DNA of 64,000 nucleotides from Syntrophaceae bacterium UBA2188 (GCA_002327985.1 DCVM01000058.1:21460-85459), one strand, 5' to 3'. Counted from the stretch's first letter, positions 5,480 to 58,853 are shown. Translations and numbers: made by a program. Notes: generated by a model not told the origin, from the sequence alone.

Positions 5480-5549
5480 TTCCTGTTTCCTTTCCTATAA
5501 ATTTCCTATAAAATGGTGATATTTTAATGAGAATAGACCAGGATGTCAA

Positions 5550-5578
5550 TTGCCGTTTTTAACCTGCTCTGTTACAAT
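5550..5578 (+). promoter_or_regulatory. Putative sigma70-like promoter of rubrerythrin
   Basis: TTGCCG, 17 nt, TACAAT (5573-5578). AAGGAGGG RBS before ATG 5610. Confidence 0.4.
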
Positions 5579-5609
5579 TTCGTATAGTAAAAAATATAAG
5601 GAGGGTGTG

Positions 5610-9837: not shown

Positions 9838-9862
9838 ACTCCCTTCGTTCCTTACGATGAGG

Positions 9863-20882: not shown

Positions 20883-21758
20883 TTACCTCACTTTTTCTTT
20901 GAGCTCATTTAATTCCTCTCTCAAAGTTGAAATCGTCTTCTGCTGCTCCTGCATTGCTTTTTGCTGCTCCTGAACCACCTTGGTTAATACCGCCACGATG
21001 TCCATAGGACTTAGTCCCTTCCGATCCCTCGTTGCGATCAGATCAGGCACTTCTTCCGCAATAAACCCCACATGCTTCTCGGTCATGTCTTTCTTATAAG
21101 CAAACTTCACTGGATTAAGCTCCTTCAAAGTATCAAGAGCCTCCTCTGTGGCAAGAGCTTCGATGTGATCCTTATACTCCCTGCTCGAAGCATTGGTCCA
21201 GACCCCTCCGGTGGTCACATGAGCCCCACTGGCCATCTCCAAGGGATATAAAGGACTCTGGGTCCCAATCCCTACATAGCCATTGCCAATGATGGTGAGT
21301 CTTGGGTATCCCGCAGGGGTGGTGGTATTCGGAGCAGTAAAGAGGTCAAGCTGGGTGGCCGCATTGCCAATGGTGTTTCCACCTCCGAATGCAACAAAAT
21401 TATCGGTTAACGTGGAGGCTGCTCCAAACAGATAGACCGGCAATTGAGCATTGTTATAGTGGCGCAAGACCATCCGTGAACCCTTGATCGTGTTGTCCGC
21501 TATCGTGTTCGAGAGGAGAAGAAGCCCATTATCAGGCGCTACAACCTCAAGGTCCCGTGCAGGAGTAGATGTCCCAACACCTACCTTACCATCCTGTGTC
21601 ACGATAAACTTTATCTGACCCACGCCGTCCTTCACCACTAACCTGTCTTCCCCGGAAGCCAAAGTAGATACGAAAAGAACTAAAATGACGACCCAAAAGC
21701 CGACAGGCACAAAGCTCCCCACCACATCCAATCGTTTGATGCTTGCTCTTCTCTTCAT
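20883..21758 (-). CDS. Short secreted fibre protein with C-terminal peptidase-S74 intramolecular chaperone domain (paralog 1)
   Basis: MKRRASIKRL plus a hydrophobic leader, then GKVGVGTSTP...DNGLLLLSNT...GNGYVGIGTQSP...GGVWTNASSREYKDHIE...HVGFIAEEVPDLI...coiled-coil tail. Start at ATG 21756-21758, after AAGGAGGG. Confidence 0.8.
   Translation of the reverse strand: MKRRASIKRLDVVGSFVPVGFWVVILVLFVSTLASGEDRLVVKDGVGQIKFIVTQDGKVGVGTSTPARDLEVVAPDNGLLLLSNTIADNTIKGSRMVLRHYNNAQLPVYLFGAASTLTDNFVAFGGGNTIGNAATQLDLFTAPNTTTPAGYPRLTIIGNGYVGIGTQSPLYPLEMASGAHVTTGGVWTNASSREYKDHIEALATEEALDTLKELNPVKFAYKKDMTEKHVGFIAEEVPDLIATRDRKGLSPMDIVAVLTKVVQEQQKAMQEQQKTISTLREELNELKEKVR
20989..21129 (-). repeat. 141-nt perfect inverted repeat with 57315-57455
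   Basis: The reverse complement of 20989-21129 is identical base-for-base to 57315-57455 (checked by hand across the block). Confidence 0.85.
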
Positions 21759-21799
21759 CTTTGCCCTCCTTATAACTATCATTTGGGTTTTATTTGACC

Positions 21800-24700
21800 C
21801 TATTGCAAAATGATATTTTCAATAATCATCGTTCCATTGGTAATCGTAATGGAACCGTTAATAGTGGTATAAGATGAATTCGATGTAAAATCTGCACCCC
21901 ATCCACCCTGAAGCGTAATCTCTTCGTCAAAATCCAGAATAATATTTTCATTATAAGTTTCTTGAGTGATCTTAATTATGGAGGGAACAGAGGCTATGGC
22001 AATTCCATTCTGGATTTTGGGGAAACAAGGATTGTAACCACTGCATAAACCATCCTTAGAAACATAAATAGTAAACAGATCATAGTAAATCGTAATGGTC
22101 TGAGAAGTTTGATTATGGGTCGGGCAGTTGTCATAGGCAATAACCGTGATCGGATTAGCCCCTGGATTCAATGCCACCTCCTTGCTCCAGTTCGCCGTTC
22201 CGCTTCCCGTCGCCGTATCATTGTTTGCCCGAGCCCCGTTGACCGTCACCTGTTGGAGGCCGTTGTCTCCCTGCCCCGAATCACTCGCGGTTCCGACCAG
22301 GGTAATACTCGGGGTACTGACATGCTGGCCATTGTTGTGACTCGTAATCGATAATGAAGGCCCCGTCGTATCAGGGCACGCTTGAGTAGTTTGAGAGCCC
22401 AGGGACGTCCATTCCGTCTCAAGGCCATCCCCGTTCTTGCCTTTCACCCTGAAGCTATAGGAAGTGTCACAGGCCAAGCTACAGCTATTCCAAGAGATGC
22501 CGGTAGTCCAACCGGAGTTCGTTCCTGCTGTAATATTTTCGCAGTAATACTCTGTACCGCTTCTATTGCCGTTGGCCGTCCAGTTCGCCCGGATGCAAGT
22601 CTGTGTTACGTTCGAGAAAGAAGACGCCCCAGGACCGCTGGCGAGCGTGTATTTGTAAACCGTTAATGAGTAAGAGGTCTCGTTGGGTGTGGAGGCTGAA
22701 TCCCTCGCCTTTACCTGATACCCGTACTGATGGTTAGGCTGAAGCCCCGTATTCGTGTAAGAGGCTGAACTCTGCCAGCCCGCATCCGAGCCACCCGTGC
22801 CCCCTGTTGGACTGTTTACGAAATGGAAGTAATAAGATACAGGTGGGCTTCCGGCGTCCGTTGCCGTGTTCGCTACCATCGATATCGATGATGCGCTTGC
22901 CCCATAAGGAGAGGTTAACCAGGTCATGGGATTCGGCGCCGGTGGAGTTGTATCAACAACAGGGCCCAGGAACTCATAGGCTCCTATGTCCACGATGTAG
23001 GTACCATTGTTGTCGCCATCCATGACCCGTGGATTGCCTTCAACGTCCGTCGTCATGTTAGGAGGAACATCACTATTACTCCCTGCGTCAATACAGGGAG
23101 AAGTGGCCATTAGATGAAAATCTCCCGATGCCCTATTCACAAAAAGGGGATCCATGTGAATATCCGTTGCTCCTCCCGATAGAGGAGAGATATAATCAGG
23201 GCCGGGGGTGTTATAAACATTATTCTTTACAAGAGTTGGGGGAATCATGGGGGTTGTGGGGTGTCCAAAAATCCCTGAAGAATTGAAGGCAATGATGTTG
23301 TTTGCGATGACAATGCGATCCGGAATGGGCACGGGAGGAGTAGTAATAGGAGGAGGAATGGCAACGGCAATACCTCCTCCTTGTTCAATGGTTCCATATG
23401 CTGTGGCTGTATTTCCAACGATTGTGTTATTCAGAATGAAAAGACTCTCAACCGCATCGGTACGAGCAAAGGCGTAGATACCACCTCCAATCCCCCCATT
23501 GCCGGCCGTAGGATCAGAGGCTGCATTATTGATGATCAGGTTATTCAGAATCTTCCCGGTGAGATTGGGTGCCACATGGATTCCCGCTCCCATAGCTGCT
23601 GTATTTCCTTTTATAATATTTCTTTCAATATAAAAGTTGTCCCCAAGTGTTAGTGTTACAGCTCCATGAACAGCTCCCATGTAGAGAGGTTGAAAAACGT
23701 AAAAGGTATTGTTCTCGATGAGGTTATCAACGATCCTGGGTGTTGAAAGGGTAGTAAATATTGCAGGGCCAAATCTTGCCCGATTTTCAGTAATGGTGTT
23801 ATCCTCAATCGTCGGTATCGAATTTCTAAAGTAGATGGCGCCGCCTTCCCCATCGAAGGTGTTCAAAAGTTCATTTTGAGTCAAGGTGTTTCCTGCGATG
23901 ATGGCATGACTTAAATAACCGTAAATCCCGCCCCCCACAGCCGGTTTACTGGCATTTTCAAAAGGATCGCCCAGGGAGTTCCGATGAATGAGGTTGTTTA
24001 ATATATATGGAGAGGTAACGCTGACATGAATGCCTCCGCCTGCGCCTTCATATCGGGGAGGAGAAAATGGACATGCACCACCGGTATAACTGCCTCCATT
24101 CTGAATGGTGAAGCCGTCCAATGCACTAACCAGATAGCCTGATCCTATAATTTTAACGACATTAGGAATGCCGCCGCCATCAAGAATGGTGGGATTGGCA
24201 ATAATGTTCCTTTGAGCTCGACTGCTTTCATTTCCGGCAAACCCCCCATAAAGATAAACGAAGGCAGGAATACTGATTCGCTCCGCATAAGTCCCTGCAG
24301 CTACCCAGACCTCCCCGCCTGTTAAGGCAGTGGCAGCGATTCCTGCGGATACGGTTCTTTTCGCTGTTCCCCAAGTTAAGCCATCCTGGGCATCATTGCC
24401 TCCCGGCTTAACATGAATAATAGGGGTAGGCACATTCCACAGAGTGCCGTCTGATTCATCCGCACCGATATCCACGCTGACTCCAATTACCCTAAGCTGG
24501 CCGTCAATATCCGTCCATTCAGGCTCAACGTCGGACATGGATCCAGCATTACGGCATGGAGAATCCGACTGTAAATGAAATTCCCCAATTTTATAATTGG
24601 CCATCTTGGGATCTGCGGAGATATTTCCATTTAGACCTGTCTGCTCAGCGATCCCTTTATAGTCCGACTTCTCTCCCTGAAGCACATTGCCATACACACA

Positions 24701-25840
24701 GTTGTAACGAATGACAGGATAGGATGGGGTTAATGAAGATTGTTCAAGACCCCAGGTGTTAAAGGCCACCAGGTTATTACTGACAACCGGAAAGCTGTTG
24801 GCCCAGAAAATCCCAGCCCCGTGGTTGGCAAATAATGTGTTATTCATGACCTTGGGAGGTGGGTAAAGGCCCGGATCCAAAGGAGGTGGAGAGTCAATGA
24901 TGCAGATGCCACCCCCTAAATATCCTCCATTTGCCGCAATGACGTTATTGATAATGGTAGGAGCGCTTACTGCATACGAAACGGGCTGGCCAACCACATC
25001 ATTAGTTGTGGCAAAGATCCCCCCTCCACCTATACCAAACACAGTTGTCTGCTTCGCATAGTTGGCAAAGATGAGGTTGTTGGAAATGATTGGGGAGGAA
25101 TGCCCCCAGGAACCAATGCCTCCTCCGTTGTCTGCGGCCTCATTGCGGGCAATAATGTTATAGGCAATGGTCGGAGAAGAACTGGGGAGATGGACAATAT
25201 TATTCGAACCCCAGACAGAAATGCCTCCTCCATCAACAGCCTTATTGTTCACAATCATATTATGGGTAATCACGGAGTGTGCTCTTGGTTGTGTAATTTT
25301 GTATTCCGAAATACTAATGCCCGGCCCATTGTTAGATTTAATGACATTGTTGGTGATGACAGGGCCTGAAGCTATGATGGCTATTCCGGACCCGTTTCCA
25401 TTCATGATATGAAACCCATCCATGCGTGTTTCAGGTCCGGCCATCGCTCGAATGCTCACAACAACGCCGGCGTTGTTCCCGTCCAAGATTGAAATATTGA
25501 GGTTCCAATCTCGCTGGGTACGCACTGTCTCCGTTCCAGCAAACCCACCATAAAGGGCCACATTCACGGCTACGTCAGTTCCTCCTACATTGACTACCTT
25601 GTTCTGGATGTTTTCCTGGTATGTGCCTGCAGCGACCCAGATTTCATCCCCTTCGCTGGCTGCATTAATCGCGGCGGTGACAGTCCTCTTAGCCAAAGAC
25701 CAACTTGCTCCGGAATTCGTATCGTTGCCGTCAGGTTTTACTCGGAGGATCGCAGAGTGAGCGACCGCTTGAAATAAAAACAAACCCATTACAATGAGGG
25801 TTAAAGACAGAGCGATTTTAGAAATGGAATGTCGTTGCAT
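21800..25840 (-). CDS. 1346-aa secreted multidomain protein: two right-handed beta-helix (Pmp/GGxI-repeat, choice-of-anchor-Q-like) units, two FN3-like domains, an Ig-like domain and a 75-aa C-terminal module
   Basis: Signal peptide. Duplicated caps (VKPDGNDTNSGASW...GDEIWVAAGTYQENI and VKPGGNDAQDGLTW...GGEVWVAAGTYAERI). GGGI/GGAIY repeats. DP.F....GDFHL...SPCIDAG...DIGAYE motifs. Confidence 0.8.
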   Translation of the reverse strand: MQRHSISKIALSLTLIVMGLFLFQAVAHSAILRVKPDGNDTNSGASWSLAKRTVTAAINAASEGDEIWVAAGTYQENIQNKVVNVGGTDVAVNVALYGGFAGTETVRTQRDWNLNISILDGNNAGVVVSIRAMAGPETRMDGFHIMNGNGSGIAIIASGPVITNNVIKSNNGPGISISEYKITQPRAHSVITHNMIVNNKAVDGGGISVWGSNNIVHLPSSSPTIAYNIIARNEAADNGGGIGSWGHSSPIISNNLIFANYAKQTTVFGIGGGGIFATTNDVVGQPVSYAVSAPTIINNVIAANGGYLGGGICIIDSPPPLDPGLYPPPKVMNNTLFANHGAGIFWANSFPVVSNNLVAFNTWGLEQSSLTPSYPVIRYNCVYGNVLQGEKSDYKGIAEQTGLNGNISADPKMANYKIGEFHLQSDSPCRNAGSMSDVEPEWTDIDGQLRVIGVSVDIGADESDGTLWNVPTPIIHVKPGGNDAQDGLTWGTAKRTVSAGIAATALTGGEVWVAAGTYAERISIPAFVYLYGGFAGNESSRAQRNIIANPTILDGGGIPNVVKIIGSGYLVSALDGFTIQNGGSYTGGACPFSPPRYEGAGGGIHVSVTSPYILNNLIHRNSLGDPFENASKPAVGGGIYGYLSHAIIAGNTLTQNELLNTFDGEGGAIYFRNSIPTIEDNTITENRARFGPAIFTTLSTPRIVDNLIENNTFYVFQPLYMGAVHGAVTLTLGDNFYIERNIIKGNTAAMGAGIHVAPNLTGKILNNLIINNAASDPTAGNGGIGGGIYAFARTDAVESLFILNNTIVGNTATAYGTIEQGGGIAVAIPPPITTPPVPIPDRIVIANNIIAFNSSGIFGHPTTPMIPPTLVKNNVYNTPGPDYISPLSGGATDIHMDPLFVNRASGDFHLMATSPCIDAGSNSDVPPNMTTDVEGNPRVMDGDNNGTYIVDIGAYEFLGPVVDTTPPAPNPMTWLTSPYGASASSISMVANTATDAGSPPVSYYFHFVNSPTGGTGGSDAGWQSSASYTNTGLQPNHQYGYQVKARDSASTPNETSYSLTVYKYTLASGPGASSFSNVTQTCIRANWTANGNRSGTEYYCENITAGTNSGWTTGISWNSCSLACDTSYSFRVKGKNGDGLETEWTSLGSQTTQACPDTTGPSLSITSHNNGQHVSTPSITLVGTASDSGQGDNGLQQVTVNGARANNDTATGSGTANWSKEVALNPGANPITVIAYDNCPTHNQTSQTITIYYDLFTIYVSKDGLCSGYNPCFPKIQNGIAIASVPSIIKITQETYNENIILDFDEEITLQGGWGADFTSNSSYTTINGSITITNGTMIIENIILQ

Positions 25841-46935: not shown

Positions 46936-49110
46936 ATGTTGAGATTTAATGACATCTTAGAAAGGCTGACCTCCTATAACCCCAATGCAGATACAGAGCT
47001 CCTGAAAAAGGCCTATGTCTTTTCTGCCAAAGTTCATTTAGGACAGGTCCGCCTCTCCGGAGAACCTTACCTCAATCATCCCTTGGAAGTCGCTGGAATT
47101 TTGACCCAACTGAAAGTCGATGTGTCCAGTGTGGCCACCGGCCTGCTTCATGATACCATTGAGGACACTCTGACCACTCCCAAAGAGATTCATGAAAACT
47201 TTGGCGAAGAAATCTCTCACCTGGTAGATGGTCTGACCAAGATCAGCCAAATTTCTCTACGATCCTCTGAAGAAAATCAGGCAGAAAATTTTCGCAAGAT
47301 GATTCTGGCGATGGTGAAGGACATTCGGGTCATCTTGATTAAACTGGCTGACCGTCTACACAACATGCGAACCCTCAAGTTTCACACTTCTGAAAAACAA
47401 GTGGAGATCGCCCAGGAAACCCTTGACATCTACGCTCCCCTGGCTCACCGCCTCGGGATCGACTGGGTGAGATCGGAGTTGGAGGATCTTGCTTTCCAAT
47501 ACCTCCATCCTGAAATCTACGAAGACATTAAGCGGAAAATTGTAAAAAGAGAGAAGGAAAGAGAACGATATATTGATGATGTAAAGCGGATCTTGATGAA
47601 GAAACTTTACGAAAATCGAATCGTCGGGGAGGTGAATGGACGCCTTAAACAGATTTACAGTATCTACTTAAAAATGAAAGACCAGAACATCGATTTTGAT
47701 CAAGTCTATGACATCACCGCCTTCCGTGTGATCGTCAGCTCCATTAAAGATTGTTACGATGTGCTGGGCATCATCCATTCCCTCTGGAAACCCATTCCAG
47801 GTAAATTCAAAGATTACATCGGCCTTCCCAAAGAGAACATGTACCAGTCCCTGCATACCGCCGTCATTGGACCCTATGGGGAACGAATTGAGATTCAGAT
47901 TCGAACTCATGAAATGCATCGGATCGCCGAGGAGGGGATCGCCGCTCATTGGAAATACAAAGAAGGGAAAGTGGTGGAAGAGGCGGATGATAAACGGTTT
48001 ACCTGGCTGAGGCAACTCTTGGAGTGGCAACGAGATCTCAAGGATGATCGAGAATTTATCGAAAGCGTGAAGGTGGACCTCTTTCCCCATGAGGTCTATA
48101 TCTTTACCCCCAAGGGAGAGGTCAAACAGTTCCCCATCGGTTCCACACCTATCGATTTTGCATACAGCATTCATTCCGACATCGGAAACCATTGTGTGGG
48201 AGCAAAGGTGAATGGAAAGATCGTCCCGCTGAAATATGAATTTCGAAGCGGGGATACGGTGGAGATCATGACGTCTCCCAATCAGAAACCCAGCAAGGAT
48301 TGGCTTAAATTTGTCAAAACCTCACGAGCTAAAACGAAAATCCGCCAATGGTTTACAGCAGAAGAAAGAGAAAAATCCATCACCCTCGGGAAAGAGATTT
48401 TGGACAAGGAACTTCGAAAATATGACCTTCAGCAGGCCAAATTAATAAAGTCAGGCGACTTGGCCAGGGTGGCAAGCGAATTTAGCTTCCAGGGGATTGA
48501 GGATCTCATCGCAGCGGTCGGTTACGGAAAGTTAACCGTCAATCAAATTATTGGGAAGATTCTTCCCCAGGAGAAGTTGGAGCAGCAAAAAGAGGAACTG
48601 AAGGAGGGGCGTTTCAAGCACTTCGTTCAAAAAATCACCCACACCCCCAAGGATGCCTTGCTGATCAAGGGAATTGATAATGTGATGGTACGCTATGCAG
48701 GGTGTTGCAATCCCGTCCCTGGAGATAAAGTGGTGGGATTCATCACCCGGGGCAGAGGGGTGACCATCCATACCATCGACTGCCAAAATGCCATGGACGA
48801 TGATCCTAACCGCATGGTCCAAGTGGAATGGGATTCGACGAAAGAATATAGCTATCCGGTAAGGATCCGGGTCTTTTCAGAGGACAAGAAAGGATTGCTG
48901 GCCGAGATCAGCAATTCACTCTCTTCCCATGAAGCCAATATCAAGAATGCCAGGGTGGATACAACAGAAGATAAAAAAGCCATCAGTACTTTTGAGGTAG
49001 AGATTCGAGATTTACACCACCTCAACAAAGTGATCAAGGCTCTTGCAAAGATTAAGGGGATCCATCGAGTAGAAAGATTGAGGGCGGAGACAGAGGCTGA
49101 AACCCTGTAG
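46936..49110 (+). CDS. rel: Bifunctional (p)ppGpp synthetase/hydrolase (RelA/SpoT homologue)
   Basis: HD domain (HLGQVRLSGEPYLNHPLEVA...HDTIEDT), synthetase block, TGS and ACT domains. 724 aa. Confidence 0.92.
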   Translation: MLRFNDILERLTSYNPNADTELLKKAYVFSAKVHLGQVRLSGEPYLNHPLEVAGILTQLKVDVSSVATGLLHDTIEDTLTTPKEIHENFGEEISHLVDGLTKISQISLRSSEENQAENFRKMILAMVKDIRVILIKLADRLHNMRTLKFHTSEKQVEIAQETLDIYAPLAHRLGIDWVRSELEDLAFQYLHPEIYEDIKRKIVKREKERERYIDDVKRILMKKLYENRIVGEVNGRLKQIYSIYLKMKDQNIDFDQVYDITAFRVIVSSIKDCYDVLGIIHSLWKPIPGKFKDYIGLPKENMYQSLHTAVIGPYGERIEIQIRTHEMHRIAEEGIAAHWKYKEGKVVEEADDKRFTWLRQLLEWQRDLKDDREFIESVKVDLFPHEVYIFTPKGEVKQFPIGSTPIDFAYSIHSDIGNHCVGAKVNGKIVPLKYEFRSGDTVEIMTSPNQKPSKDWLKFVKTSRAKTKIRQWFTAEEREKSITLGKEILDKELRKYDLQQAKLIKSGDLARVASEFSFQGIEDLIAAVGYGKLTVNQIIGKILPQEKLEQQKEELKEGRFKHFVQKITHTPKDALLIKGIDNVMVRYAGCCNPVPGDKVVGFITRGRGVTIHTIDCQNAMDDDPNRMVQVEWDSTKEYSYPVRIRVFSEDKKGLLAEISNSLSSHEANIKNARVDTTEDKKAISTFEVEIRDLHHLNKVIKALAKIKGIHRVERLRAETEAETL

Positions 49111-49134
49111 TGAACGCAGATCTGCGTTCACTAC
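49107..49134. terminator. Perfect 28-bp palindrome between convergent rel and rpmB (hairpin, no U-tract)
   Basis: GTAGTGAACGCAGA|TCTGCGTTCACTAC. Overlaps the rel stop codon. Confidence 0.4.
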
Positions 49135-49151
49135 ATCTTATCCACACATCA

Positions 49152-49343
49152 TCAAGCAGCTTTGGTGACAAACCCTGAGCGAAGGCATCTGGAACAAATT
49201 TTCATTCGAATGGTCCTTCCCTCTTTGAGGGTTTTCACCTTATGAAGGTTAGGGTACCAGATTCTTTGGGTCTTGTTATTGGCATGACTAACATTATGTC
49301 CAAAGACAGGCCCTTTTCCGCAAATGTCACAAACTTTTGCCAT
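49152..49343 (-). CDS. rpmB: 50S ribosomal protein L28
   Basis: [33 protein letters not shown]... Confidence 0.92.
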
Positions 49344-49499
49344 GATCGAACCTCAAAATATTTAATTGTTTAATATTAACATAATATAAAAATACTTCAA
49401 TAAATATTTTTTCCCACGAAAAAATTTTTTCCCCTCTCTATTCACCTCACTTCCCTACCTCTTCTATGAGAATCCACCCCCACCTTCTCCCTATTGCAA

Positions 49500-49602
49500 G
49501 TAATGCCTCACCTGAACGGGGTAGGGGCGACTTCAGTCGCCCTTTAGAAAGGGAGGCTAAAGCCTCCCCTACCCATGGCCCCCCGCTTCAGTGACGCATT
49601 AC
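49500..49602. repeat. Nested palindrome: roughly 28-37-nt imperfect outer arms enclosing three small hairpins
   Basis: GTAATGCCTCACCTGAACGGGGTAGGGG ... CCCCTACCCatggccCCCCGCTTCAGTGACGCATTAC. Inner hairpins: CGACttcaGTCG, CCCTTTagAAAGGG, GGGAGGCtaaaGCCTCCC. Confidence 0.6.
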
Positions 49603-49844
49603 TATTACAATTATTTTACAATTGACAATTATGACATGACTTGATAAATAAATGTTATCTTGGAAATAAAAGCTTATACCTTTTTAGAGGAACAGATGAG
49701 GCACAAATCGAAAAAGGGGGTGATAGATGGCCCCTGAATGGGGTTTATGACCTCTTGAGGGGGCAAAATGTTAGAGATAAATTTTCAAATTTAAATATGT
49801 AAGAATTTAAACAGTCTAATATTCAAATCAAAAAGGAGGTTGCC

Positions 49845-51467
49845 ATGGATAAGATTAAGATCATTTGCGTGTTAGTTGTAATTGGAGTGCTCCTTTGTGT
49901 CACACCGTCAATTGCACAGGTAGCTGTTGATTGTACCTCAGTAAGCCTTCAAACTGCAATCAGCAATAATGGTGCTGGAACAACGTTCAATGTGACCGGA
50001 ACTTGTAATGAGAACATAACGATTCATGAGTCGAAAGAAAGGATTACTATAAATGGGGGTGGTACAGCAGCTATCAGTGGCCCGAGTGCAACCAGTCCAG
50101 TTGTCACGATAAGGGGGCAAGGGGTTGTGGTAACGGGCTTTACCATTTCGGGAGGCCAGGATGGGATACAGTTGTTCAGAGGCGGGTCCGCGACAATATA
50201 TGGGAATACAATCCAAAGCACTGGCAGAAATGGGATCACTGTAGCCGGAAATAGCTATGCCGCAATTTTTAGTAATTCGATACACGATAACCCCCAACGT
50301 GGGATATCTGTATCTGAAAATTCGGCTGCGCGCATAGGGTTTTACAGCTATTCAGATACGAGCGCTTCACCTAACAGCATTTATAACAATGGAAGCTACG
50401 GGATCGAAGTTTACCGGACTTCCAGGGCACACATTGTAGGAAATACCATCAGTAGTAATGACATAACTGGGATCTTGGTTAGCGCGGGTTCGCAAGCCGG
50501 CATTTCTTACAATACAATTAATGACAATGGAGGAAGCGGGATTTACGTAGGCTACGATTCTTCCGCTGGTCTGGGATCTCTTAGTGGGTCTACCATCTTC
50601 GATTCACCTAACACCACGACTCTCAATAACGTATATAACGGTTTGCGATGCGAGATGGGAGCAACGATTTCCGGCCGAATAGGGACCCTCAATGGTAACG
50701 AAGGAAACATCGGCAACACTGGCATAGGAATTAAGACCTCCGAGCTCGCAGACGACTATGGCATCGATATTCTGACTGCCAGCACCGGTTCAAAGGCAGG
50801 TTTAATACTGTTAGGGAATGCAACTGCCAATAATGCTGATAAAGTAGCCCGAATGGTTGTTCGCCATTATAACAACGCTGAGGAGCCATTATATCTTTTT
50901 GGTGCCTACTCAGGTCCAACAGATAACTTTGTTGCTTTTGGTGGAGGCAGTGTTCTGGGGAATGCAGCAACACAGTTAGATTTCTTCACCGCTCCAACCA
51001 CTACCACTCAAGCGGGTTTGCCCAGGATTACAATAAAAGGAAATGGATATGTCGGCATCGGCAGACAGGATCCTTCCTATCCATTACACATGGCCAGTGG
51101 AGCCCATGTGACCACAGGAGGGGTGTGGACCAATGCTTCGAGCAGGGAGTATAAGGATCACATCGAAGCTCTTGCCACGGAGGAGGCCCTTGATACATTG
51201 AAGGAGCTTAATCCTGTTAAATTTGCCTATAGATTAGATCCGACTGAAAAGCATGTGGGATTTATTTCTGAGGAAGCGCCCGAACTTATCGCAACGAAAG
51301 ACAGAAAAGGGTTAAGCCCGATGGATATCGTAGCGGTTTTAACAAAGGTCATTCAGGAACAGCAGAGGGTTGCCGAAGAGCAGCAGAAGACCATCTCGGT
51401 GCTTTCTGAGAAAATCGCTGAGCTTGAAAGAGGACTAAAATTGAGAGAGGGGCTCTCGCAGCCGTGA
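49845..51467 (+). CDS. Secreted fibre protein: NosD-like parallel beta-helix head plus fibre module plus peptidase-S74 intramolecular chaperone domain (paralog 2)
   Basis: Signal peptide. PbH1 repeats (GNTIQSTGRNGITV, NSIHDNPQRGISV, GNTISSNDITGILV, NTINDNGGSGIYV). Then RMVVRHYNNAEEPLYLFGA...GNGYVGIG...GGVWTNASSREYKDHIE...HVGFISEEAPELI. Confidence 0.8.
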   Translation: MDKIKIICVLVVIGVLLCVTPSIAQVAVDCTSVSLQTAISNNGAGTTFNVTGTCNENITIHESKERITINGGGTAAISGPSATSPVVTIRGQGVVVTGFTISGGQDGIQLFRGGSATIYGNTIQSTGRNGITVAGNSYAAIFSNSIHDNPQRGISVSENSAARIGFYSYSDTSASPNSIYNNGSYGIEVYRTSRAHIVGNTISSNDITGILVSAGSQAGISYNTINDNGGSGIYVGYDSSAGLGSLSGSTIFDSPNTTTLNNVYNGLRCEMGATISGRIGTLNGNEGNIGNTGIGIKTSELADDYGIDILTASTGSKAGLILLGNATANNADKVARMVVRHYNNAEEPLYLFGAYSGPTDNFVAFGGGSVLGNAATQLDFFTAPTTTTQAGLPRITIKGNGYVGIGRQDPSYPLHMASGAHVTTGGVWTNASSREYKDHIEALATEEALDTLKELNPVKFAYRLDPTEKHVGFISEEAPELIATKDRKGLSPMDIVAVLTKVIQEQQRVAEEQQKTISVLSEKIAELERGLKLREGLSQP

Positions 51468-51502
51468 ACATTTTCTCCAATCAAATCTGATCAGAGACTC
51501 CT

Positions 51503-51533
51503 GCTGTCCCACTTGGTTTCCAGGTGGGACAGC
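51503..51533 (+). terminator. 10-bp hairpin after paralog 2 (no U-tract); left edge of the GC-rich segment
   Basis: GCTGTCCCACttggtttccagGTGGGACAGC. Confidence 0.35.
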
Positions 51534-51565
51534 TGACCACAAACGTGATTGTTGTAAAGACACAT

Positions 51566-52171
51566 ATGAGTGACCCATACGACGATTTAAGAGGTTCCCG
51601 GAACTTCCAACCTTCTGGCAACGATGCTGAGTCGATGGAGGAGTTTTTCTCACGGTGCGAGGACCCTTGGCGCCTCAAAGACCTCGCTCGCCACGGCCCT
51701 CGGATTGAGATCTTCAGGGCGATGCTTCAACAACATGGTCCGAAATTTCGCCGTCTCTTGGATATCGGCTGCGCCGAAGGATTTATCACCTACCACCTGC
51801 ACGACCTATCAGAGTTCACTCTTGGAATTGATGTCTCTCCCACTGCGATTCAGCGAGCCATCCGGGATTACGGTCGCACCTGCAGTTTCGAGGTTGGTGG
51901 AATCAGCGATTTTCGGCCAGATGAGCCGTTCGACGCCGTCGTGATCACTGGGGTGCTTTACTACCTGAGCGATCAACGCCAACTGATCAACGAGAATGTG
52001 TCACTCTATCTCGCGAGCGGCGGCTTGTTGCTGATTTCACACATAAAGGAATCGAGCGGCCATACCGGTTTCGTCGAATTATTTGACCCGGAGCGATTCC
52101 AACTTATTACTTCCAAGGAGTTCCCATGCGATGAGTACGACCAGTCCCTACATCTCTTCCGTAAACGTTAA
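51566..52171 (+). CDS. Class I SAM-dependent methyltransferase (NodS-like)
   Basis: DPWRLKD...RRLLDIGCAEGFIT motif I...AVVITGVLYYL. The start is uncertain (ATG 51566, versus the track's GTG 51524 inside the hairpin). Confidence 0.7.
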   Translation: MSDPYDDLRGSRNFQPSGNDAESMEEFFSRCEDPWRLKDLARHGPRIEIFRAMLQQHGPKFRRLLDIGCAEGFITYHLHDLSEFTLGIDVSPTAIQRAIRDYGRTCSFEVGGISDFRPDEPFDAVVITGVLYYLSDQRQLINENVSLYLASGGLLLISHIKESSGHTGFVELFDPERFQLITSKEFPCDEYDQSLHLFRKR

Positions 52172-53168
52172 GTCGGTCGGTTTTGGGAATGATCAAGCTG
52201 CTTTCAACCCTCTTAACGGCCACCTCTGGTTCTTTAGGGATTCTTTGCTGCTTTCGTGGGATGACAGTGGGATCGAGACAGTCAACTGGTTCAAACCGAA
52301 TCAGCCAGGTCGAATGCTCTACTTCACTCCGGAAGGTGGCGTCCTTGTTTCAATGGAGCTCTCCGGCGAAGTCCTTCTCTCAGAGGATCAGGGAAGGAGT
52401 TTTTACCGTGTGCTGAACTTGGCGGGTGCGAATTCCTGGGTTCAAAACTGGGCAATTGAGCGGGTTGATCCTTATTTACTCCTTGGTGAGTATCATCTGG
52501 ATTGGGACGAACGCGCGATTCTTTATGCTTCGCCTGATGGGGGGCACTCATGGCAAGGCGTTTTCAAGATACCAGATCGCCACATTCACTTTCTCCGTTC
52601 GGACCCCTTCTCTGACCAGTTTTTTGTTTCGTATGGTGACAGCGCCAAAGGTGTTTTTAGAATCCCGCGACAGATTCTTGCGGATGCACTGGGTGAAGTC
52701 TTCGCCGGAAGGCTCAGTTCGATACCGCCTGATCTGTTCACCCGCGTCAACCCTGGTCACGAAGGGTTGATGTCCATCGGCTTTACTCCCGAGGTCTTAC
52801 TCTATGGAACCGATCTGGCAGTCGGCAATTCCATTGTTGTAGAAGCCAGAGACGGGACCACCCGTGTATTTCAGCTTGAGCCGCCGTTCGATCTGATGTC
52901 ATACGAGTTCCTCTGGCTTGGCGGACTTCCTCTAGTCACGATGCGGTTGACTATCGGATTACCCGGGCGCAACCACAACAAGCCCTGTATCGCAACGCTC
53001 AACCCGGAAACGGGAGAACTCAATCGCATCAGCGAAAACGAGGCTTTCTACTTCACCTTACCTCACGCAGGGAAAGTCGTGACAGCGAGAACGGACCAAA
53101 CGCTGCTGATTTCGAGCACGACAGAGTCCAAGGCTGCCGTCATGGAAGGTACTAACGCCTACGGTTAA
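52131..53168 (+). CDS. Hypothetical beta-propeller-like protein with BNR/Asp-box motifs
   Basis: SPDGGHSW and SEDQGRSF Asp-box-like motifs. AAGGAG RBS 10 nt before ATG 52131. Overlaps the methyltransferase 3' end. No signal peptide seen. Confidence 0.5.
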   Translation: MSTTSPYISSVNVKSVGFGNDQAAFNPLNGHLWFFRDSLLLSWDDSGIETVNWFKPNQPGRMLYFTPEGGVLVSMELSGEVLLSEDQGRSFYRVLNLAGANSWVQNWAIERVDPYLLLGEYHLDWDERAILYASPDGGHSWQGVFKIPDRHIHFLRSDPFSDQFFVSYGDSAKGVFRIPRQILADALGEVFAGRLSSIPPDLFTRVNPGHEGLMSIGFTPEVLLYGTDLAVGNSIVVEARDGTTRVFQLEPPFDLMSYEFLWLGGLPLVTMRLTIGLPGRNHNKPCIATLNPETGELNRISENEAFYFTLPHAGKVVTARTDQTLLISSTTESKAAVMEGTNAYG

Positions 53169-53186
53169 AATCCAGCATAGCGGTTA

Positions 53187-53285
53187 TCTACCACTCCAGG
53201 AGGTTATCCGAGGATTACAATAAAAGGGAATGGTTATGTTGGTATTGGTACCCAAACTCCCTCCTATCTATTACAGATGGCGAGT
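53187..53285 (+). pseudogene. Decayed internal fragment of an S74 fibre paralog
   Basis: Translates ..STTPGGYPRITIKGNGYVGIGTQTPSYLLQMAS, then loses homology and stops. It matches PRITIKGNGYVGIGRQDPSYPLHMAS of paralog 2. An in-frame TAG lies immediately upstream (53178-53180). Confidence 0.65.
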
Positions 53286-53391
53286 ATGGATTTTCTTTTT
53301 ACTTTCAAATAGTCTTTTACGAGGGGCAAGCCAACAGCTTGCCCCTCTAATTATGTAGAAGAGCCTCTGTTCGTGTTTCGGAGGATATAAG

Positions 53392-55128
53392 ATGAAACAA
53401 TTCGATGGGGCATCTTGCAAGGCTTTGATTACCATTTCCATAATATCTCTTTTGGTCATCTCACTCAAGACAAGACCCATTTTAGCACAAGAAAAAATAA
53501 TAGACCGGGGGAAAATAGTTTCTATTGCTATGACAAAAGGGTTTGTCAAAGTGATCGTTCAAATAGAAGTCCCCAAAATTAGAGAACTGACGGGACATTC
53601 TACAAAATATAGGAATATAGAGCCAGGTCAGATATTTTCAAGAGATGGCATCAAAGCTGACATGGCACTTGATGCGGCAATCAGTGAGGCCTCACATGGG
53701 TTATTGTCAAGATTAAGATCCACGAACGCCTTATTCAGGGTGAACCATACTTATATAACGCTACCCATTGTAGCCCTGGACGTCTCTGAAGAGACACTCC
53801 TAACCTTGGAGATTGACCCTTCTGTAATACGAATTGTTGAAGATCGTCCGCTCCCTCTCGTTGATACCTCTATCTATAAAAAATATATTGCTGATGTGGT
53901 TCCACCGTCACTTTACGATACGGTCAACATCATTGGCGCCAACGAGGCATGGGCAACAGGATACACAGGTTCAGGTTGGTATGTGGCGGTTCTGGATACT
54001 GGAATACGATCAAGCCATGAGTTCTTTTCAGCGAAGACCATCGTAGAAGCGTGTTTCTCAGCCCTGGGAGACTGCCCGAATGGTTTAACCGAGATGCACG
54101 GTCCTGGAGCCGCCACACATTATGAAAATACTTATAGAGGATGGGATCATGGGACGCATGTCACCGGAATAGCCGCTGGAAATAAGGAAAATGCCCTCTA
54201 CGGAGTGGCCAAAGATGCAGATATTATCGCGATTCAGGTCTTCTCACGTTTTACGGCTGAGGAGTGTGATGGTAGTCCCTGTATCATGAGCTATACTTCG
54301 GATCAGATCAAAGGTTTAGAATATTTATATACACTGCGCGGAATTTACAGTATAGCCTCAGCAAATATGAGTCTCGGTGGTGGACGCTACTCCAATCAAA
54401 CAACCTGCGATCGGGAAAACGCTTCGACTAAGTCGGCCATTGACCATCTTCGCTCTATTGGTATTGCAACCGTTATAGCATCAGGGAATGATGGTTTCTG
54501 TGATGGATTAAATGCACCCGGCTGTATTTCTTCAGCCGTTGCCATAGGTGCCACCACCAAGTCTGATCAGCAAACACGGTTTAGCAACTGGCATGAAAGC
54601 ATGTTAGATTTATTTGCCCCTGGCCAAAGTATATTTTCCTCAACCGGTGATTCTGACACGAGTTATGAATACTGGAGTGGTACTTCTATGGCCGCGCCCC
54701 ATGTCGCCGGAGCGTGGGCCATACTAAAGCAGAAAAACCCAAGTGAGACAGTACCTGGAATTTTAAATTCATTGTCTACCACTGGTGTACCGGTCACAAC
54801 CCTGTGTACTAAACAACTCGGCTCAAAACCCAGGATAAAGGTAGATGCCACTTTAGCCGCTTTAAGTTGTGATAACCCTCCCCTGAAGGTAGATACCCAA
54901 TATTTTAATACAGTCCAGGTGGCCTACGATAGCGCTCCAGAGGGGAGTATCATTCAGGTCCAGTCAGTGGGATTTACCGAGGACCTAATTTTTGATCGAA
55001 ATATTACAGCTACCTTTAAAGGGGGTTATGATTGTGACTACACAGCTAATCCTGGATACACAATAGTGAACGGATCGCTAAAAATCAGTAACGGGATGCT
55101 GATGATTGAGAATCTGGCAATAAAGTAG
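53392..55128 (+). CDS. Secreted subtilisin-like serine protease (peptidase S8) with a 75-aa C-terminal module shared with the 1346-aa protein
   Basis: Catalytic triad contexts VAVLDTGI, HGTHVTGIAAG, GTSMAAPHVAG. Hydrophobic leader. GGAGGA RBS. Confidence 0.88.
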   Translation: MKQFDGASCKALITISIISLLVISLKTRPILAQEKIIDRGKIVSIAMTKGFVKVIVQIEVPKIRELTGHSTKYRNIEPGQIFSRDGIKADMALDAAISEASHGLLSRLRSTNALFRVNHTYITLPIVALDVSEETLLTLEIDPSVIRIVEDRPLPLVDTSIYKKYIADVVPPSLYDTVNIIGANEAWATGYTGSGWYVAVLDTGIRSSHEFFSAKTIVEACFSALGDCPNGLTEMHGPGAATHYENTYRGWDHGTHVTGIAAGNKENALYGVAKDADIIAIQVFSRFTAEECDGSPCIMSYTSDQIKGLEYLYTLRGIYSIASANMSLGGGRYSNQTTCDRENASTKSAIDHLRSIGIATVIASGNDGFCDGLNAPGCISSAVAIGATTKSDQQTRFSNWHESMLDLFAPGQSIFSSTGDSDTSYEYWSGTSMAAPHVAGAWAILKQKNPSETVPGILNSLSTTGVPVTTLCTKQLGSKPRIKVDATLAALSCDNPPLKVDTQYFNTVQVAYDSAPEGSIIQVQSVGFTEDLIFDRNITATFKGGYDCDYTANPGYTIVNGSLKISNGMLMIENLAIK

Positions 55129-55206
55129 ATTAAGAGGAGATTAAATTTGTAAGGAATATGGTTAACAATGAGACATAGATCCAGAAAATATGCTGAGGAG
55201 GAAGAA

Positions 55207-56061
55207 ATGAAAAGAAGATTAAGCATAAGGCCATTGAACTTTATCAAGACCTTCATCCCTGCCGGCCCTTTGATGGTAATTTTAGTTATTCTCGCTCACA
55301 CTCTGGCTTTCAGTGCAGACAGATTAGTGGTTCAGAACGCTTTGGGTGAAACAAAGTTCGTTGTAACACAGGAGGGTAAGGTAGGTGTGGGGACATCTAT
55401 TCCCGGACAGGACCTTGACATCGTTGCCCCTGACAATGGGCTGCTTCTCCTCTCAAACACGATCACAGACAGTACGACCAAGGTCTCCCGAATTGTTTTA
55501 CGTCACTATTCTAATGCTCAATTGCCTGTCTATTTTTTCGGTGCCGCCTCCACATCCACCGATAATTTTGTTGCCCTTGGTGGTGGAGCCCCCATCGGCA
55601 ATGCTGCCACCCAAATTGACCTCTTTACAACAGAAAATACGACCACACCGGTTGGGACACCACGATTGACCATCATTGGCAATGGCTATGTGGGGATTGG
55701 GATTCAGGATCCTGAGTATCCCTTGGAGATGGCCAGTGGGGCCTATGTGACCACAGGTGGGGTCTGGACCAATGCTTCGAGCCGGGAGTATAAGGATAAC
55801 ATCGAAACCCTTGCCACAGAGGAAGCTCTTGATGCGTTAAAGGAACTTAATCCCGTGAAGTTTGGTTATAAAAAAGACGTGACTGAGAAGCACGTAGGAT
55901 TTATAGCGGAAGAGGTTCCTGATCTTATCGCAACAAAAGACAGAAAAGGGTTAAGTCCGATGGACATCGTGGCGGTGCTCACCAAAGTGGTTCAGGAGCA
56001 GCAGAAAGCGATTTCAACTCTTTATGAAAAAGTATCTGAGCTTGAAAAAACGCTCAAATAA
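55207..56061 (+). CDS. Short secreted fibre protein with peptidase-S74 intramolecular chaperone domain (paralog 3)
   Basis: MKRRLSIRPL leader. Same architecture as paralog 1 (GKVGVGTSIP...DNGLLLLSNT...GGVWTNASSREYKDNIE...HVGFIAEEVPDLI). GAGGAGG RBS before ATG 55207. Confidence 0.8.
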   Translation: MKRRLSIRPLNFIKTFIPAGPLMVILVILAHTLAFSADRLVVQNALGETKFVVTQEGKVGVGTSIPGQDLDIVAPDNGLLLLSNTITDSTTKVSRIVLRHYSNAQLPVYFFGAASTSTDNFVALGGGAPIGNAATQIDLFTTENTTTPVGTPRLTIIGNGYVGIGIQDPEYPLEMASGAYVTTGGVWTNASSREYKDNIETLATEEALDALKELNPVKFGYKKDVTEKHVGFIAEEVPDLIATKDRKGLSPMDIVAVLTKVVQEQQKAISTLYEKVSELEKTLK

Positions 56062-56267
56062 AATTCTTCAAGCTTTTAGGTGGGTGTTATTTCCTTCTTA
56101 AAATAACCTCTTGTTATCTCCACTTATAAGTTGATAGCACTTTCTTTTTTCTCAATTTCCGATTGACAAAAAATGGTATTTCTTTTAGTCTTTACACAGA
56201 AAATAATTTTCAAATCCCTCATCATCCTTTTATCTAAAGGAATGATGAGGTAAAAAGGGAGGGTAAA

Positions 56268-57581
56268 ATGAAAAAAAAGATCATGATTTGTGCAATGGTT
56301 CTGTTTTTGTCTGCATTTTCAGGGATTGCCTTTGGAGGGACAGAGGGAACTATCAACACTTTCTATGGCACAGGGGCTGGGGGAACTACAACCGGAGATG
56401 ATGACTATGACACCTTTATAGGTGCGGGTGCCGGTTACTCAAACACCACCGGTTATTACAACACCTTCCTAGGATTTGGGGCTGGCTACCTCAACACCAC
56501 CGGTTATGCTAACACCTTCCTGGGGTACCGTGCCGGCTATAACACCAACGGTATCTCTAACACCTTCCTGGGGTTTGAGGCCGGCTACTCCAACACCACA
56601 GGTAACAGTAACATTTTCCTGGGGCCTTTGGCCGGCTACTCCAGCACCACCGGTTACTTCAACACCTTCCTGGGGGAGGCTGCCGGCTATTTCAACAGCA
56701 CCGGTATCTCTAACACCTTCCTGGGGTATGCTGCCGGATACAACAACACCGGCTCCGGAAACGTTTTCCTTGGCAATAAAGCAGGGTATTATGAGGCAGG
56801 CTCAAACAAACTCTACATAGACTACTCACAAACCTCTACCCCCCTCATCTATGGAGAGTTTGATAATAGGATATTGACCATCCACGGGAACCTTGAGGTA
56901 ATCGGCCCTGACAATGGACTGGTCTATCTGTCAAACACCACTGCTGACAACACGGACAAAGGATCCCGGATGGTCTTAAATCACTATTCAAACGCCCAAT
57001 TGCCGGTTTACCTTTTCGGGGCATACTCAGGCCCAACGGATAACTTTGTTGCCTTTGGCGGAGGAGCCCTCATCGGCAATGCAGCCACCCAGCTTGACCT
57101 CTTCACCGCTCCGAATACCACCACCCCTGCGGGATACCCAAGACTCACCATCATTGGCAATGGGTATGTGGGGATTGGGACCCAGAGTCCTTTTTATCCC
57201 TTGGAGATGGCCAGTGGGGCTCATGTGACCACCGGAGGGGTCTGGACCAATGCTTCGAGCAGGGAGTATAAGGAAAACATCATAGCTCTTGCCACGGAGG
57301 AGGCCCTTGATACCTTGAAGGAGCTTAATCCAGTGAAGTTTGCTTATAAGAAAGACATGACCGAGAAGCATGTGGGGTTTATTGCGGAAGAAGTGCCTGA
57401 TCTGATCGCAACGAGGGATCGGAAGGGACTAAGTCCTATGGACATCGTGGCGGTACTCACCAAGGTGGTTCAAGAACAGCAGAAGGTTATTGAGGAACAA
57501 CAGAAGACCGCGCAAGAGCAGCGCAATGCCATTTCTTTGCTCAAAGAGGAGTTGAATGAACTAAAGGAGAAAGTCAGATAA
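56268..57581 (+). CDS. Secreted fibre protein: tandem NTFLG-x-AGY-x-NTTG repeat head plus fibre module plus peptidase-S74 chaperone domain (paralog 4)
   Basis: Signal peptide. About 7-8 repeats of 16-17 aa. C-terminal 225 aa are nearly identical to paralog 1. Confidence 0.8.
   Translation: MKKKIMICAMVLFLSAFSGIAFGGTEGTINTFYGTGAGGTTTGDDDYDTFIGAGAGYSNTTGYYNTFLGFGAGYLNTTGYANTFLGYRAGYNTNGISNTFLGFEAGYSNTTGNSNIFLGPLAGYSSTTGYFNTFLGEAAGYFNSTGISNTFLGYAAGYNNTGSGNVFLGNKAGYYEAGSNKLYIDYSQTSTPLIYGEFDNRILTIHGNLEVIGPDNGLVYLSNTTADNTDKGSRMVLNHYSNAQLPVYLFGAYSGPTDNFVAFGGGALIGNAATQLDLFTAPNTTTPAGYPRLTIIGNGYVGIGTQSPFYPLEMASGAHVTTGGVWTNASSREYKENIIALATEEALDTLKELNPVKFAYKKDMTEKHVGFIAEEVPDLIATRDRKGLSPMDIVAVLTKVVQEQQKVIEEQQKTAQEQRNAISLLKEELNELKEKVR
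56413..56790 (+). repeat. In-frame tandem coding repeats (about 48-51 nt period) in the paralog 4 head
   Basis: AACACCTTCCTGGGG recurs at a 48-51-nt spacing. Protein repeat: NTFLGxxAGYxNTTGxx. Confidence 0.75.
57315..57455 (+). repeat. 141-nt perfect inverted repeat partner of 20989-21129
   Basis: See 20989-21129. Confidence 0.85.
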
Positions 57582-57680: not shown

Positions 57681-57731
57681 CAAGAAGCAACAGTGAAGTG
57701 AATGGAAGTGAGATGATGAGAGGCTAATTTG

Positions 57732-57765
57732 AGGCAGGATCAAACATGATCCTGCCTTTTCATTT
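57732..57765 (+). terminator. Rho-independent terminator
   Basis: AGGCAGGATCaaacatGATCCTGCCT followed by TTTTCATTT. Confidence 0.7.
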
Positions 57766-57773
57766 ATTAAGGG

Positions 57774-58853
57774 ATGGGGATAACACAGTTCATCTCTCCG
57801 ACGATGTCGTACTTGCAGGGAATAGAGTGGCAAGTTAAAATAGCGAGACGCGAGGAAGTGAATAAGACCCGGAGGTCCTATTCCTTGAAGAAGAAAGTTT
57901 TATTGCCTGTTATTGCTCTTGCCTTGGTTCTTCTTGTATTTTGCTATGTACACCTTATTCCAAGGATTCAAACCGTGGTGGGAAAAAGGATTTATCGGAG
58001 TTCTCAGCTTTCAGCTCATTTCCTGGAAAAAGTAATAAGAGAAAAGGGCATTAAGACAATGATTAATCTAAGGGGAGAGGATAAAGATTCGAAGTGGTAC
58101 ATCGAAGAAAATGAAATATGTAGAAAAAATAACGTAACACTGTATGATTGTAGGCTGCATGCCTCTGATCTCCCCAAAACTCGTATCCTCATGAAGATAA
58201 TAAATATACTTCTTACGTCTGAACGACCTCTCTTGATTCATTGTGTTGCAGGGGTTGATAGGACTGGGTTCGTCAGCGCCTTAGCTCTGGCCATCGAAAA
58301 GGATCTTCCACTCTTTGAACTAAAGAAACAATTTTCGTGGAGATATGGTGTCTTTCCTTTTAATAGATTAATCGGGCCGCTTTTTTTTTCTAAATATGAA
58401 CAATGGCTTGAAAAAATGCAGAGGCCCCATAGCAAAGAAAATCTAATTTATTGGATTAACCTTGAATATGTTGATAGCCAGGAAAATATCGAATTTAACA
58501 TTGACCACATTAATGGGAAACATTCTAAGAAAATAATTACTTTATCTAAAAACTCAAAAACGATATGGATGGAGGGTTGGGCTTTTAACACCCGTACCAA
58601 CTCACCCTTAGAAGACCTCCGGGTTATCATTGATAATCGAATTTCATTAAAAGCTGATAGGGTGAACAGGCCTGACGTTGCCACGTTCTTCGAATTAAAA
58701 AAACATGAAGATCATTTTATGGTGGGTTGGAGGGTGTCACCTGATAGAAACACCATAGGCGAAGGATGTCACAAAATATCTTTCAGAATCAATGATAACC
58801 AATCAGGGAGTTTGGATATCCCAACAGATTTAGCATTTTGTATTGAAGATTAA
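57774..58853 (+). CDS. Membrane-anchored protein-tyrosine/dual-specificity phosphatase-like protein with an uncharacterised C-terminal domain
   Basis: CX5R motif HCVAGVDRTG. One TM (VLLPVIALALVLLVFCYVHL). The start is uncertain because the terminator lies only 10-40 nt upstream. Confidence 0.6.
   Translation: MGITQFISPTMSYLQGIEWQVKIARREEVNKTRRSYSLKKKVLLPVIALALVLLVFCYVHLIPRIQTVVGKRIYRSSQLSAHFLEKVIREKGIKTMINLRGEDKDSKWYIEENEICRKNNVTLYDCRLHASDLPKTRILMKIINILLTSERPLLIHCVAGVDRTGFVSALALAIEKDLPLFELKKQFSWRYGVFPFNRLIGPLFFSKYEQWLEKMQRPHSKENLIYWINLEYVDSQENIEFNIDHINGKHSKKIITLSKNSKTIWMEGWAFNTRTNSPLEDLRVIIDNRISLKADRVNRPDVATFFELKKHEDHFMVGWRVSPDRNTIGEGCHKISFRINDNQSGSLDIPTDLAFCIED

Follow-up and report, generated by a model that had tools for sequence, protein, structure and literature searches.

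What is a family of genes that end like phage tail fibres doing among the housekeeping genes of a bacterial chromosome? The question is raised by a 64-kb stretch of DNA from Syntrophaceae bacterium UBA2188 (hereafter the window), in which a first-pass annotation had recognized four full genes and one fragment with a common C-terminal unit. Using the open reading frame (ORF) listing of the window and a tblastn search of each paralog against its six frames, we confirm four full copies of the unit (paralogs A to D) and a single fragment. We think it probable that A-D are genes of the host's own chromosome and encode homotrimeric, fibre-like proteins exported through Sec, which would use the same tip principle as the fibres of phages and the mosaic adhesive trimeric (MAT) fibres of Bdellovibrio bacteriovorus.

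The tip and chaperone unit and its variable N-termini

The common unit makes up the last 213-228 aa of proteins that are 284-540 aa long, and its copies share 70-90% protein identity and 68-85% DNA identity. The first-pass annotation assigned its end to the S74 intramolecular-chaperone domain and suggested a profile search of the C-terminal ~120 aa. This search bears the assignment out: the last ~100 aa match Pfam PF13884 (Peptidase_S74) above the cutoff of 22 bits in all four paralogs (27.8-42.3 bits), and in 120 of 120 close relatives (here and below, the best relatives among at least 2520). The match begins exactly at the first Ser of SSREYK, with the Ser-x4-Lys dyad intact at the first residue of the domain. 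Ser199, Ser200 and Lys204 (numbered in the 299-aa reading of A) are invariant in the alignment of 120 sequences, and the residue after the nucleophile is Ser, where the family usually has Asp. Cleavage is predicted between ...VWTNA and SSREYK.

The ~120 aa that precede the S74 domain are homologous, by sequence only, to the triple beta-helix tips of the MAT proteins Bd3182 and Bd2133. In a single-sequence search of PDB sequences, the best matches were Bd2133 (8OND, E=7e-5) and Bd3182 (8OJN, 1.5e-3). A search with the family profile found Bd2133 (8OND, E=7.4e-11), Bd3182 (8OJN, 1.3e-6) and a third MAT protein (8OML, 1e-5), followed by the L-shaped tail fibre of T5 (8HQZ, E=7e-5) and, weakly, eukaryotic MYRF (7DC3, E=0.027). 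The single-sequence alignment begins at the first capping loop and extends through WTNAS, which lies opposite the WTVAS that ends the Bd3182 tip, and it places the catalytic Ser on the terminal Ser of the Bd3182 chain in 8OJN, Ser782. Bd3182 cleaves itself at Ser782, and tips of its type are intertwined trimeric beta-helices bounded by two capping loops with a conserved motif (PMC10769870). Loops of the type V-G-x-G-T-x-x-P-x-x-x-L in the window proteins align to those of Bd3182; A (VGVGTSTPARDL and VGIGTQSPLYPL) and C have both, and B and D retain the distal loop only. PHROGs tail-fibre families match tip and chaperone alike. Given the tip homology and the S74 match, we interpret the unit, by homology, as a triple beta-helix tip followed by a self-cleaving folding chaperone.

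The chaperones of phage tail fibres and tailspikes (K1F endosialidase, 3GW6; T5 pb1, 4UW8/8HQZ; MEROPS S74) belong to the same domain family and have the same dyad and the same position after a triple beta-helix. In contrast to these, the window proteins have signal peptides, are not encoded within a module of virion genes and lack close relatives in phages. The ICA domain of MYRF is the same self-cleaving, trimerising domain with the same capping-loop motif. However, MYRF is a membrane-bound transcription factor in which cleavage frees the N-terminal part for entry into the nucleus, an unrelated role.

What precedes the unit varies from copy to copy. B has a right-handed beta-helix (Pfam Beta_helix 1.7e-17, NosD 2.8e-10). 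D has a 51-nt (17-aa) tandem repeat in 6.4 copies, which matches phage virion and tailspike PHROGs, with no Pfam match and no relative among PDB sequences. In A and C, which we call headless, only ~20-25 residues separate the signal peptide from the shared unit and its first capping loop. Among the 120 relatives, the unit is 55-90% conserved and the N-termini fall into at least four classes: repeat-type (~63), headless (~22), NosD-type helix (2) and a class absent from the window (~9), in which Cys-containing GRWCTSNGS..C repeats are followed by NYVPRWNGS. Mosaics of these classes are also present. This survey, which the first-pass annotation had called for, agrees with its claim that the heads differ and are interchangeable, and variable N-terminal modules do exist. 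The word 'head' may mislead, however, because homology indicates that it is the distal tip that is conserved.

A trimeric autotransporter, a type with YadA-like head or stalk repeats and a C-terminal beta-barrel anchor, was considered for the repeat module of D and rejected, since Pfam searches found no YadA, Hep_Hag or anchor match and the C-terminus is S74 rather than a barrel.

By inspection, all four paralogs and their orthologues have Sec-type signal peptides, as had been proposed, and we regard A-D as putatively secreted surface proteins. In the mechanism that we favour, the signal peptide would export each chain. The C-terminal S74 chaperone would then set three chains in register and nucleate folding of the ~120-aa triple beta-helix tip, as homology to Bd3182, T5 pb1 and K1F endosialidase suggests. 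Finally, the Ser199/Lys204 dyad would cut before SSREYK, releasing the ~100-aa chaperone and leaving a very stable trimer. Given that the tip is constant and the N-terminus variable, we suspect that the tip is a common trimerisation and docking cassette for a single, constant partner, for which a glycan in the envelope or matrix of the same cell is the likeliest candidate. N-terminal modules would supply diverse activities. The headless forms probably act together with a secreted enzyme or adhesin encoded just upstream, so that in their case a co-encoded protein with a particular C-terminal domain (CTD) would supply the activity. Copies may diversify via duplication into arrays, module swapping and gene conversion.

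Several points weigh against this interpretation. Trimerisation and autocleavage are predicted from homology, and the docking role of the conserved tip is pure conjecture. An AlphaFold2 monomer of A, built from a 38-sequence alignment, reached a predicted local distance difference test (pLDDT) score of 50.5, too poor for a comparison of folds; a low score would be expected for an intertwined trimer. Gene context was read over the window, 64 kb of a 112-kb contig, and a search for RNA runs gave none. No outer-membrane translocation route or anchor was identified, and the N-terminal anchoring domain of MAT fibres is absent. In addition, A and C have long hydrophobic N-termini that may stay uncleaved and act as membrane anchors. 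In that case, the proteins would be periplasmic trimers held in the inner membrane by signal anchors and would never reach the surface. The unusually long n-regions and the hydrophobic stretches of 19-20 residues in A and C would suit such a location, but the signal peptides of B and D are classical, and divergent headless orthologues (P0064, P0071, P0082) have short, cleavable signal peptides with A-x-A-like sites. We consider inner-membrane anchoring quite unlikely. A KRR motif raised the possibility of Tat export for A and C, which was rejected since orthologues do not conserve the RR.

Genomic context, selection and relatives

The annotated ORFs of the window have housekeeping or metabolic assignments. 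They include MutY, TrpRS, a lipoate ligase, radical-SAM (S-adenosylmethionine) enzymes, xanthine-dehydrogenase-like subunits, an aldehyde dehydrogenase, TRAP and ABC transporters, RelA/SpoT, ribosomal protein L28 and glycosyltransferases. GC content is flat (0.44-0.49) across both loci. Relatives adjoin LptE, EF-P and LeuRS on a 129-kb contig. In line with what the first-pass annotation had stated for either locus, the window yielded no gene for phage or tailocin structures, integration or lysis, nor did annotated related loci. IMG/VR contained no close relative, with partial matches of 26-36% identity only, and GenBank phages gave no tblastn match at E<=1e-5. The chromosomal neighbours and the absence of flanking phage genes in the window support a host-owned modular fibre system rather than a prophage.

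The ratio of nonsynonymous to synonymous substitution (dN/dS) between paralogs is 0.05-0.18, in tip and chaperone alike, with synonymous sites near saturation for B. We therefore regard A-D as old, functional genes under strong purifying selection. This bears on the possibility that they are tail-fibre genes left from decayed prophages or tailocins, for which it can be said that all modules have distant homologues in tail-fibre PHROGs and that one copy is a 33-aa remnant. Besides the purifying selection, the lack of virion, integrase and lysis genes in the window and related loci and the uniform composition argue against such an origin, as do the signal peptides, which virion proteins lack. 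Furthermore, at least 2520 relatives share a conserved architecture in chromosomal contexts, and none that is close is borne by a phage. We consider a phage-remnant origin largely refuted and give it almost no credence.

The proteins could instead be interchangeable fibres of an extracellular contractile injection system (eCIS), a tailocin or a gene transfer agent particle encoded elsewhere in the genome, only part of which was read. S74 ends and swappable modules are reportedly frequent in eCIS and tailocin fibres (bioRxiv 10.1101/2025.05.13.653841). However, Sec signal peptides clash with the assembly of such particles in the cytoplasm, attachment to a particle requires a constant N-terminus whereas here the N-terminus varies, and no sheath, tube or baseplate gene is present in the retrieved loci with annotated neighbours. 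Thus, particle fibres are a very unlikely explanation.

Gene conversion has acted on the family. Paralogs A and D lie 35 kb from each other in inverted orientation. In the 3' half of the unit (20886-21188(-) versus 57255-57578(+)) their nucleotide identity is 95-100%, with a perfect run of 141 nt, whereas in the 5' half it is 65-80%. This contrast marks a clear, recent conversion tract between the two genes. In principle, the tract could also allow the segment between them to invert; the contigs showed no inversion joint. Unitig-level contigs from two independent public datasets reproduce the locus, with breaks only within repeated units, and it is therefore not an assembly artefact. In one related 20-kb contig (L010 1-20156), the S74 unit occurs in tandem at ~8 positions on a single strand; several copies are frameshifted, possibly through long-read assembly errors.

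A word-indexed search at E<=1e-3 retrieved at least 2520 related proteins, nearly all unnamed and metagenomic, which are 179-521 aa long and 55-88% identical over the unit. They come from SPRUCE peat metagenome-assembled genomes (MAGs) and from many JGI metagenomes, and the window sequence itself turned up in runs from 2013 labelled 'hydrocarbon metagenome' and in a 2017 dataset of 5 Mb. A scan of 185,579 species-representative genomes found only one close relative, so the lineage is poorly represented. LptE and DsbC on related contigs indicate a diderm bacterium. The one close relative (L001; JBEKOM010000049.1, 2963 bp) was binned in a 'Candidatus Bathyarchaeia' MAG. Its content matches that of a metagenome contig (L015) exactly, and it carries a bacterial-type pair of a CTD gene and a headless S74 gene; it is probably misbinned. 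In the window (46936-51467), relA/spoT and an S74 fibre gene are no more than a few kb apart, and so they are in a distant relative, L074 (5741-12625; GCA_040960175.1), the headless gene of which is 63% identical. This proximity suggests an old, conserved chromosomal location.

The nearest known system is the S74 subgroup of the MAT fibres of B. bacteriovorus, which includes Bd3182 (8OJN, 8OND, 8OML; Caulton et al. 2024, PMC10769870). These fibres are a published precedent, so host-owned S74 fibres are not in themselves a new idea. Like the window family, they are chromosomal, non-phage and multi-copy, have a signal peptide, and combine a triple beta-helix tip, bounded by two capping loops that share the motif, with an S74 domain that cleaves at an aligned Ser. 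However, MAT proteins are ~1000 aa long, with an invariant, beta-rich N-terminal domain of ~130 aa (presumed to be the cell anchor) and variable C-terminal tips. In the window family, at 284-540 aa, the polarity is reversed: the tip is conserved and the N-terminus is variable or absent. What fills the space after the signal peptide indicates that the ~130-aa domain is missing, and since the variable tips of long fibres are missing as well, we do not file the family as a member of the MAT group. The two also differ in motif (SSxxxK versus SDxxxK in MAT), in the pairing of headless genes with CTD genes, which is a feature of the window family, and in host, given that MAT fibres belong to a predator whereas the window family is found in anoxic hydrocarbon and sediment communities, in a host not known to be a predator. 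What is new here is that the polarity is reversed, that a minimal headless form exists, that the uncharacterised family is of this size and that headless genes are paired with CTD genes.

To our knowledge, experimental work on host-encoded S74 fibres has so far been confined to the predator Bdellovibrio. The tip-plus-chaperone cassette has expanded in non-predatory members of anaerobic communities, with the polarity of variation reversed. This expansion suggests that bacteria may generally use a self-cleaving trimerisation cassette to build stable trimers outside the cell, beyond receptor binding by phages and predators. The mature headless form, at 150 aa, would be a handy minimal model for chaperone-driven folding of a triple beta-helix.

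Headless genes and an upstream C-terminal domain

Each headless gene in the window follows a gene for a secreted protein. A 1346-aa multidomain protein is encoded 41 nt upstream of A, and a 578-aa S8 subtilase 78 nt upstream of C. These two proteins are otherwise unrelated, and they have in common a CTD of ~90 aa that is 38% identical (tblastn, E=4e-13). The window has only these two CTDs, each preceding one of its only two headless genes. At nine of the ten headless loci with readable upstream DNA, the same-strand gene directly upstream ends in the CTD (Table 1); at the exception, L075, the headless gene follows a gene for a secreted beta-helix-like protein. A CTD gene was never seen upstream of B- and D-class genes, in the window or at the loci of relatives. 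The 1346-aa protein also has a 'choice-of-anchor Q' domain (NCBIfam), a label that we take to mark proteins with a varying C-terminal anchor.

The CTD itself belongs to a large family. An exhaustive profile search of cluster representatives found it in 5126 of them at E<=1e-3 and in 1091 at E<=1e-10; a word-indexed search had given only 18 short proteins. It is nearly always at the extreme C-terminus, occasionally right after the signal peptide or internally repeated, and its cargo includes papain-like proteases, a concanavalin-like lectin, and Calx-beta and TIG/beta-propeller domains. The CTD has no Pfam model, and comparison with PDB sequences gave nothing significant. Its consensus is ...IQ.GI..AS..SII.ITQETY.ENIILD....I.L.GGWD..FTSNSSYTTI.GS.TI.NG...IENI.L, in which the motif IQ.GI..A....I.I....Y.E.I.L......L.GG looks like the beginning of a right-handed beta-helix. 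The match to the start of the beta-helix in B is weak and at the level of the motif (BLASTP E=0.013, hhalign probability 2.6%).

One explanation for this pairing would be a two-part display system that has not been described before. The headless trimers A and C would serve as docking platforms to which the CTD of the upstream protein binds, so that the head is supplied in trans, in the manner of branched phage tailspike adaptors. CTD-tagged proteases, lectin-like proteins and beta-helix proteins would then dock on a fibre whose tip binds the envelope or matrix. The near-constant pairing speaks for this idea, given that it holds across very different cargo (beta-helix/fn3, S8, Calx-beta, PKD/BACON and proteins without a Pfam match), as do the exclusive pairing within the window and the lack of CTD genes upstream of the B and D classes. 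On the other hand, some CTD genes stand apart from any S74 gene: at L072 there are four (they encode two papain-like proteases, an S8 protease and a protein of no recognized family) with no S74 gene within 12 kb, and at L073 there is one. The headless gene of L075 has no CTD partner, and the CTD family, with its ~5126 representatives, some of them with N-terminal or internal copies, far outsizes the headless set. Adjacency may mean co-regulation only, and the AlphaFold model of the CTD is poor (pLDDT 48.3). Hence, we put the display system forward as a tentative and rather doubtful proposal. If it is true, bacteria would have evolved a modular 'plug-in head' arrangement built on a minimal phage-derived tip. 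The pairing also gives a lead on what the CTD, unannotated and widespread (~5000 cluster representatives), may do.

Coordinates and neighbouring features

The ORFs of A and C are open beyond the starts used in the first-pass annotation (Table 1). A strong Shine-Dalgarno sequence precedes each of the shorter starts (AAGGAGG for A, GAGGAGG for C), and orthologues start at the same positions; as these two lines agree, the shorter starts are likely the true ones.

Table 1. Positions of the S74 genes and their parts, of CTD genes and of neighbouring features (window positions unless a related locus is named)
Feature	Position	Strand	tblastn match	Description
Paralog A, headless	20883-21758	-	20886-21782	ORF open to 21782, 21758 likely start; signal peptide, then short stub with capping loop VGVGTSTPARDL, then tip
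A, beta-helix tip	~21189-21602	-
A, catalytic Ser codon	21186-21188	-		Predicted cleavage before Ser
A, Lys codon	21171-21173	-
A, S74 domain and coiled-coil tail	20886-21188	-
1346-aa secreted multidomain protein	21800-25840	-		DUF1565 beta-helix, fn3, Glucodextran_B, choice-of-anchor Q
CTD of 1346-aa protein	21803-22069	-
rpmB	49152-49343	-
Nested palindrome	49517-49580	+		Outer stem GGGGTAGGGG/CCCCTACCC, two inner hairpins
Paralog B	49845-51467	+	49845-51464	Signal peptide, then right-handed beta-helix (residues ~35-255; Pfam Beta_helix/NosD)
B, tip	50781-51137	+
B, catalytic Ser codon	51138-51140	+		S74 domain and tail to 51464
B, Lys codon	51153-51155	+
Methyltransferase gene	51524-52171	+		NodS-type, SAM-dependent
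361-aa ORF	52083-53168	+		Asp-box-like motif SPDGGHSW
Remnant of fifth copy, 33 aa	53187-53285	+	53187-53285	Distal capping-loop region STTPGGYPRITIKGNGYVGIGTQTPSYLLQMAS; intergenic, outside any ORF
578-aa secreted S8 subtilase	53392-55128	+
CTD of S8 subtilase	54883-55125	+
Paralog C, headless	55207-56061	+	55168-56058	ORF open from 55168, 55207 likely start; two capping loops, VGVGTSIPGQDL and VGIGIQDPEYPL
C, tip	55420-55776	+
C, catalytic Ser codon	55777-55779	+
C, Lys codon	55792-55794	+
Paralog D	56268-57581	+	56268-57578	Signal peptide, then 17-aa NTFLG/AGY repeats, then neck
D, 51-nt repeat	56430-56750	+
D, tip	56898-57254	+
D, catalytic Ser codon	57255-57257	+
D, Lys codon	57270-57272	+
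Terminator-like hairpin	57731-57758			3' of D
359-aa protein gene	57774-58853	+		N-terminal hydrophobic segment, phosphatase domain
CTD gene before headless orthologue, L008	CTD 9682-9948			809-aa protein
CTD genes before headless orthologues, L001, L015, L016, L036
CTD genes before headless orthologues, L013, L014				S8 subtilases
CTD gene before headless orthologue, L074	CTD ~5450-5685			1438-aa PKD/BACON protein
CTD gene before headless orthologue, L076	CTD ~2690-2963			801-aa Calx-beta protein

The remnant of the fifth copy is 70-76% identical to the paralogs (tblastn). It begins 19 nt past the stop codon of the 361-aa ORF, for which Pfam and NCBIfam gave no match and which lacks an obvious signal peptide. 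This ORF and the methyltransferase gene occupy the space from B to the remnant. The 51-nt repeat of D keeps long alternative frames open (56476-56820(+), TPSWG... repeats), and similar ones are present in L026, L027, L017 and L041; these ORFs are by-products of the repeat and not genes.

Rfam gave nothing at gathering score across the whole window, and a scan for promoters and terminators found no excess over the shuffled expectation, save for one strong, terminator-like hairpin 3' of D. A short, GC-rich nested palindrome lies between rpmB and B (-45 kcal/mol, z = -4.9) and is present in one copy in the window. Contig depth at this palindrome is ~8-13 times that of its flanks, with many loose ends, which indicates that it is a multi-copy element elsewhere in the genome, similar to a repetitive extragenic palindrome (REP) or a miniature inverted-repeat transposable element (MITE). 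Just 3' of D, a gene encodes a 359-aa protein with a dual-specificity or tyrosine phosphatase domain, whose matches include the 'polymorphic toxin system DSP-PTPase' family Tc-R-P (1.5e-7).

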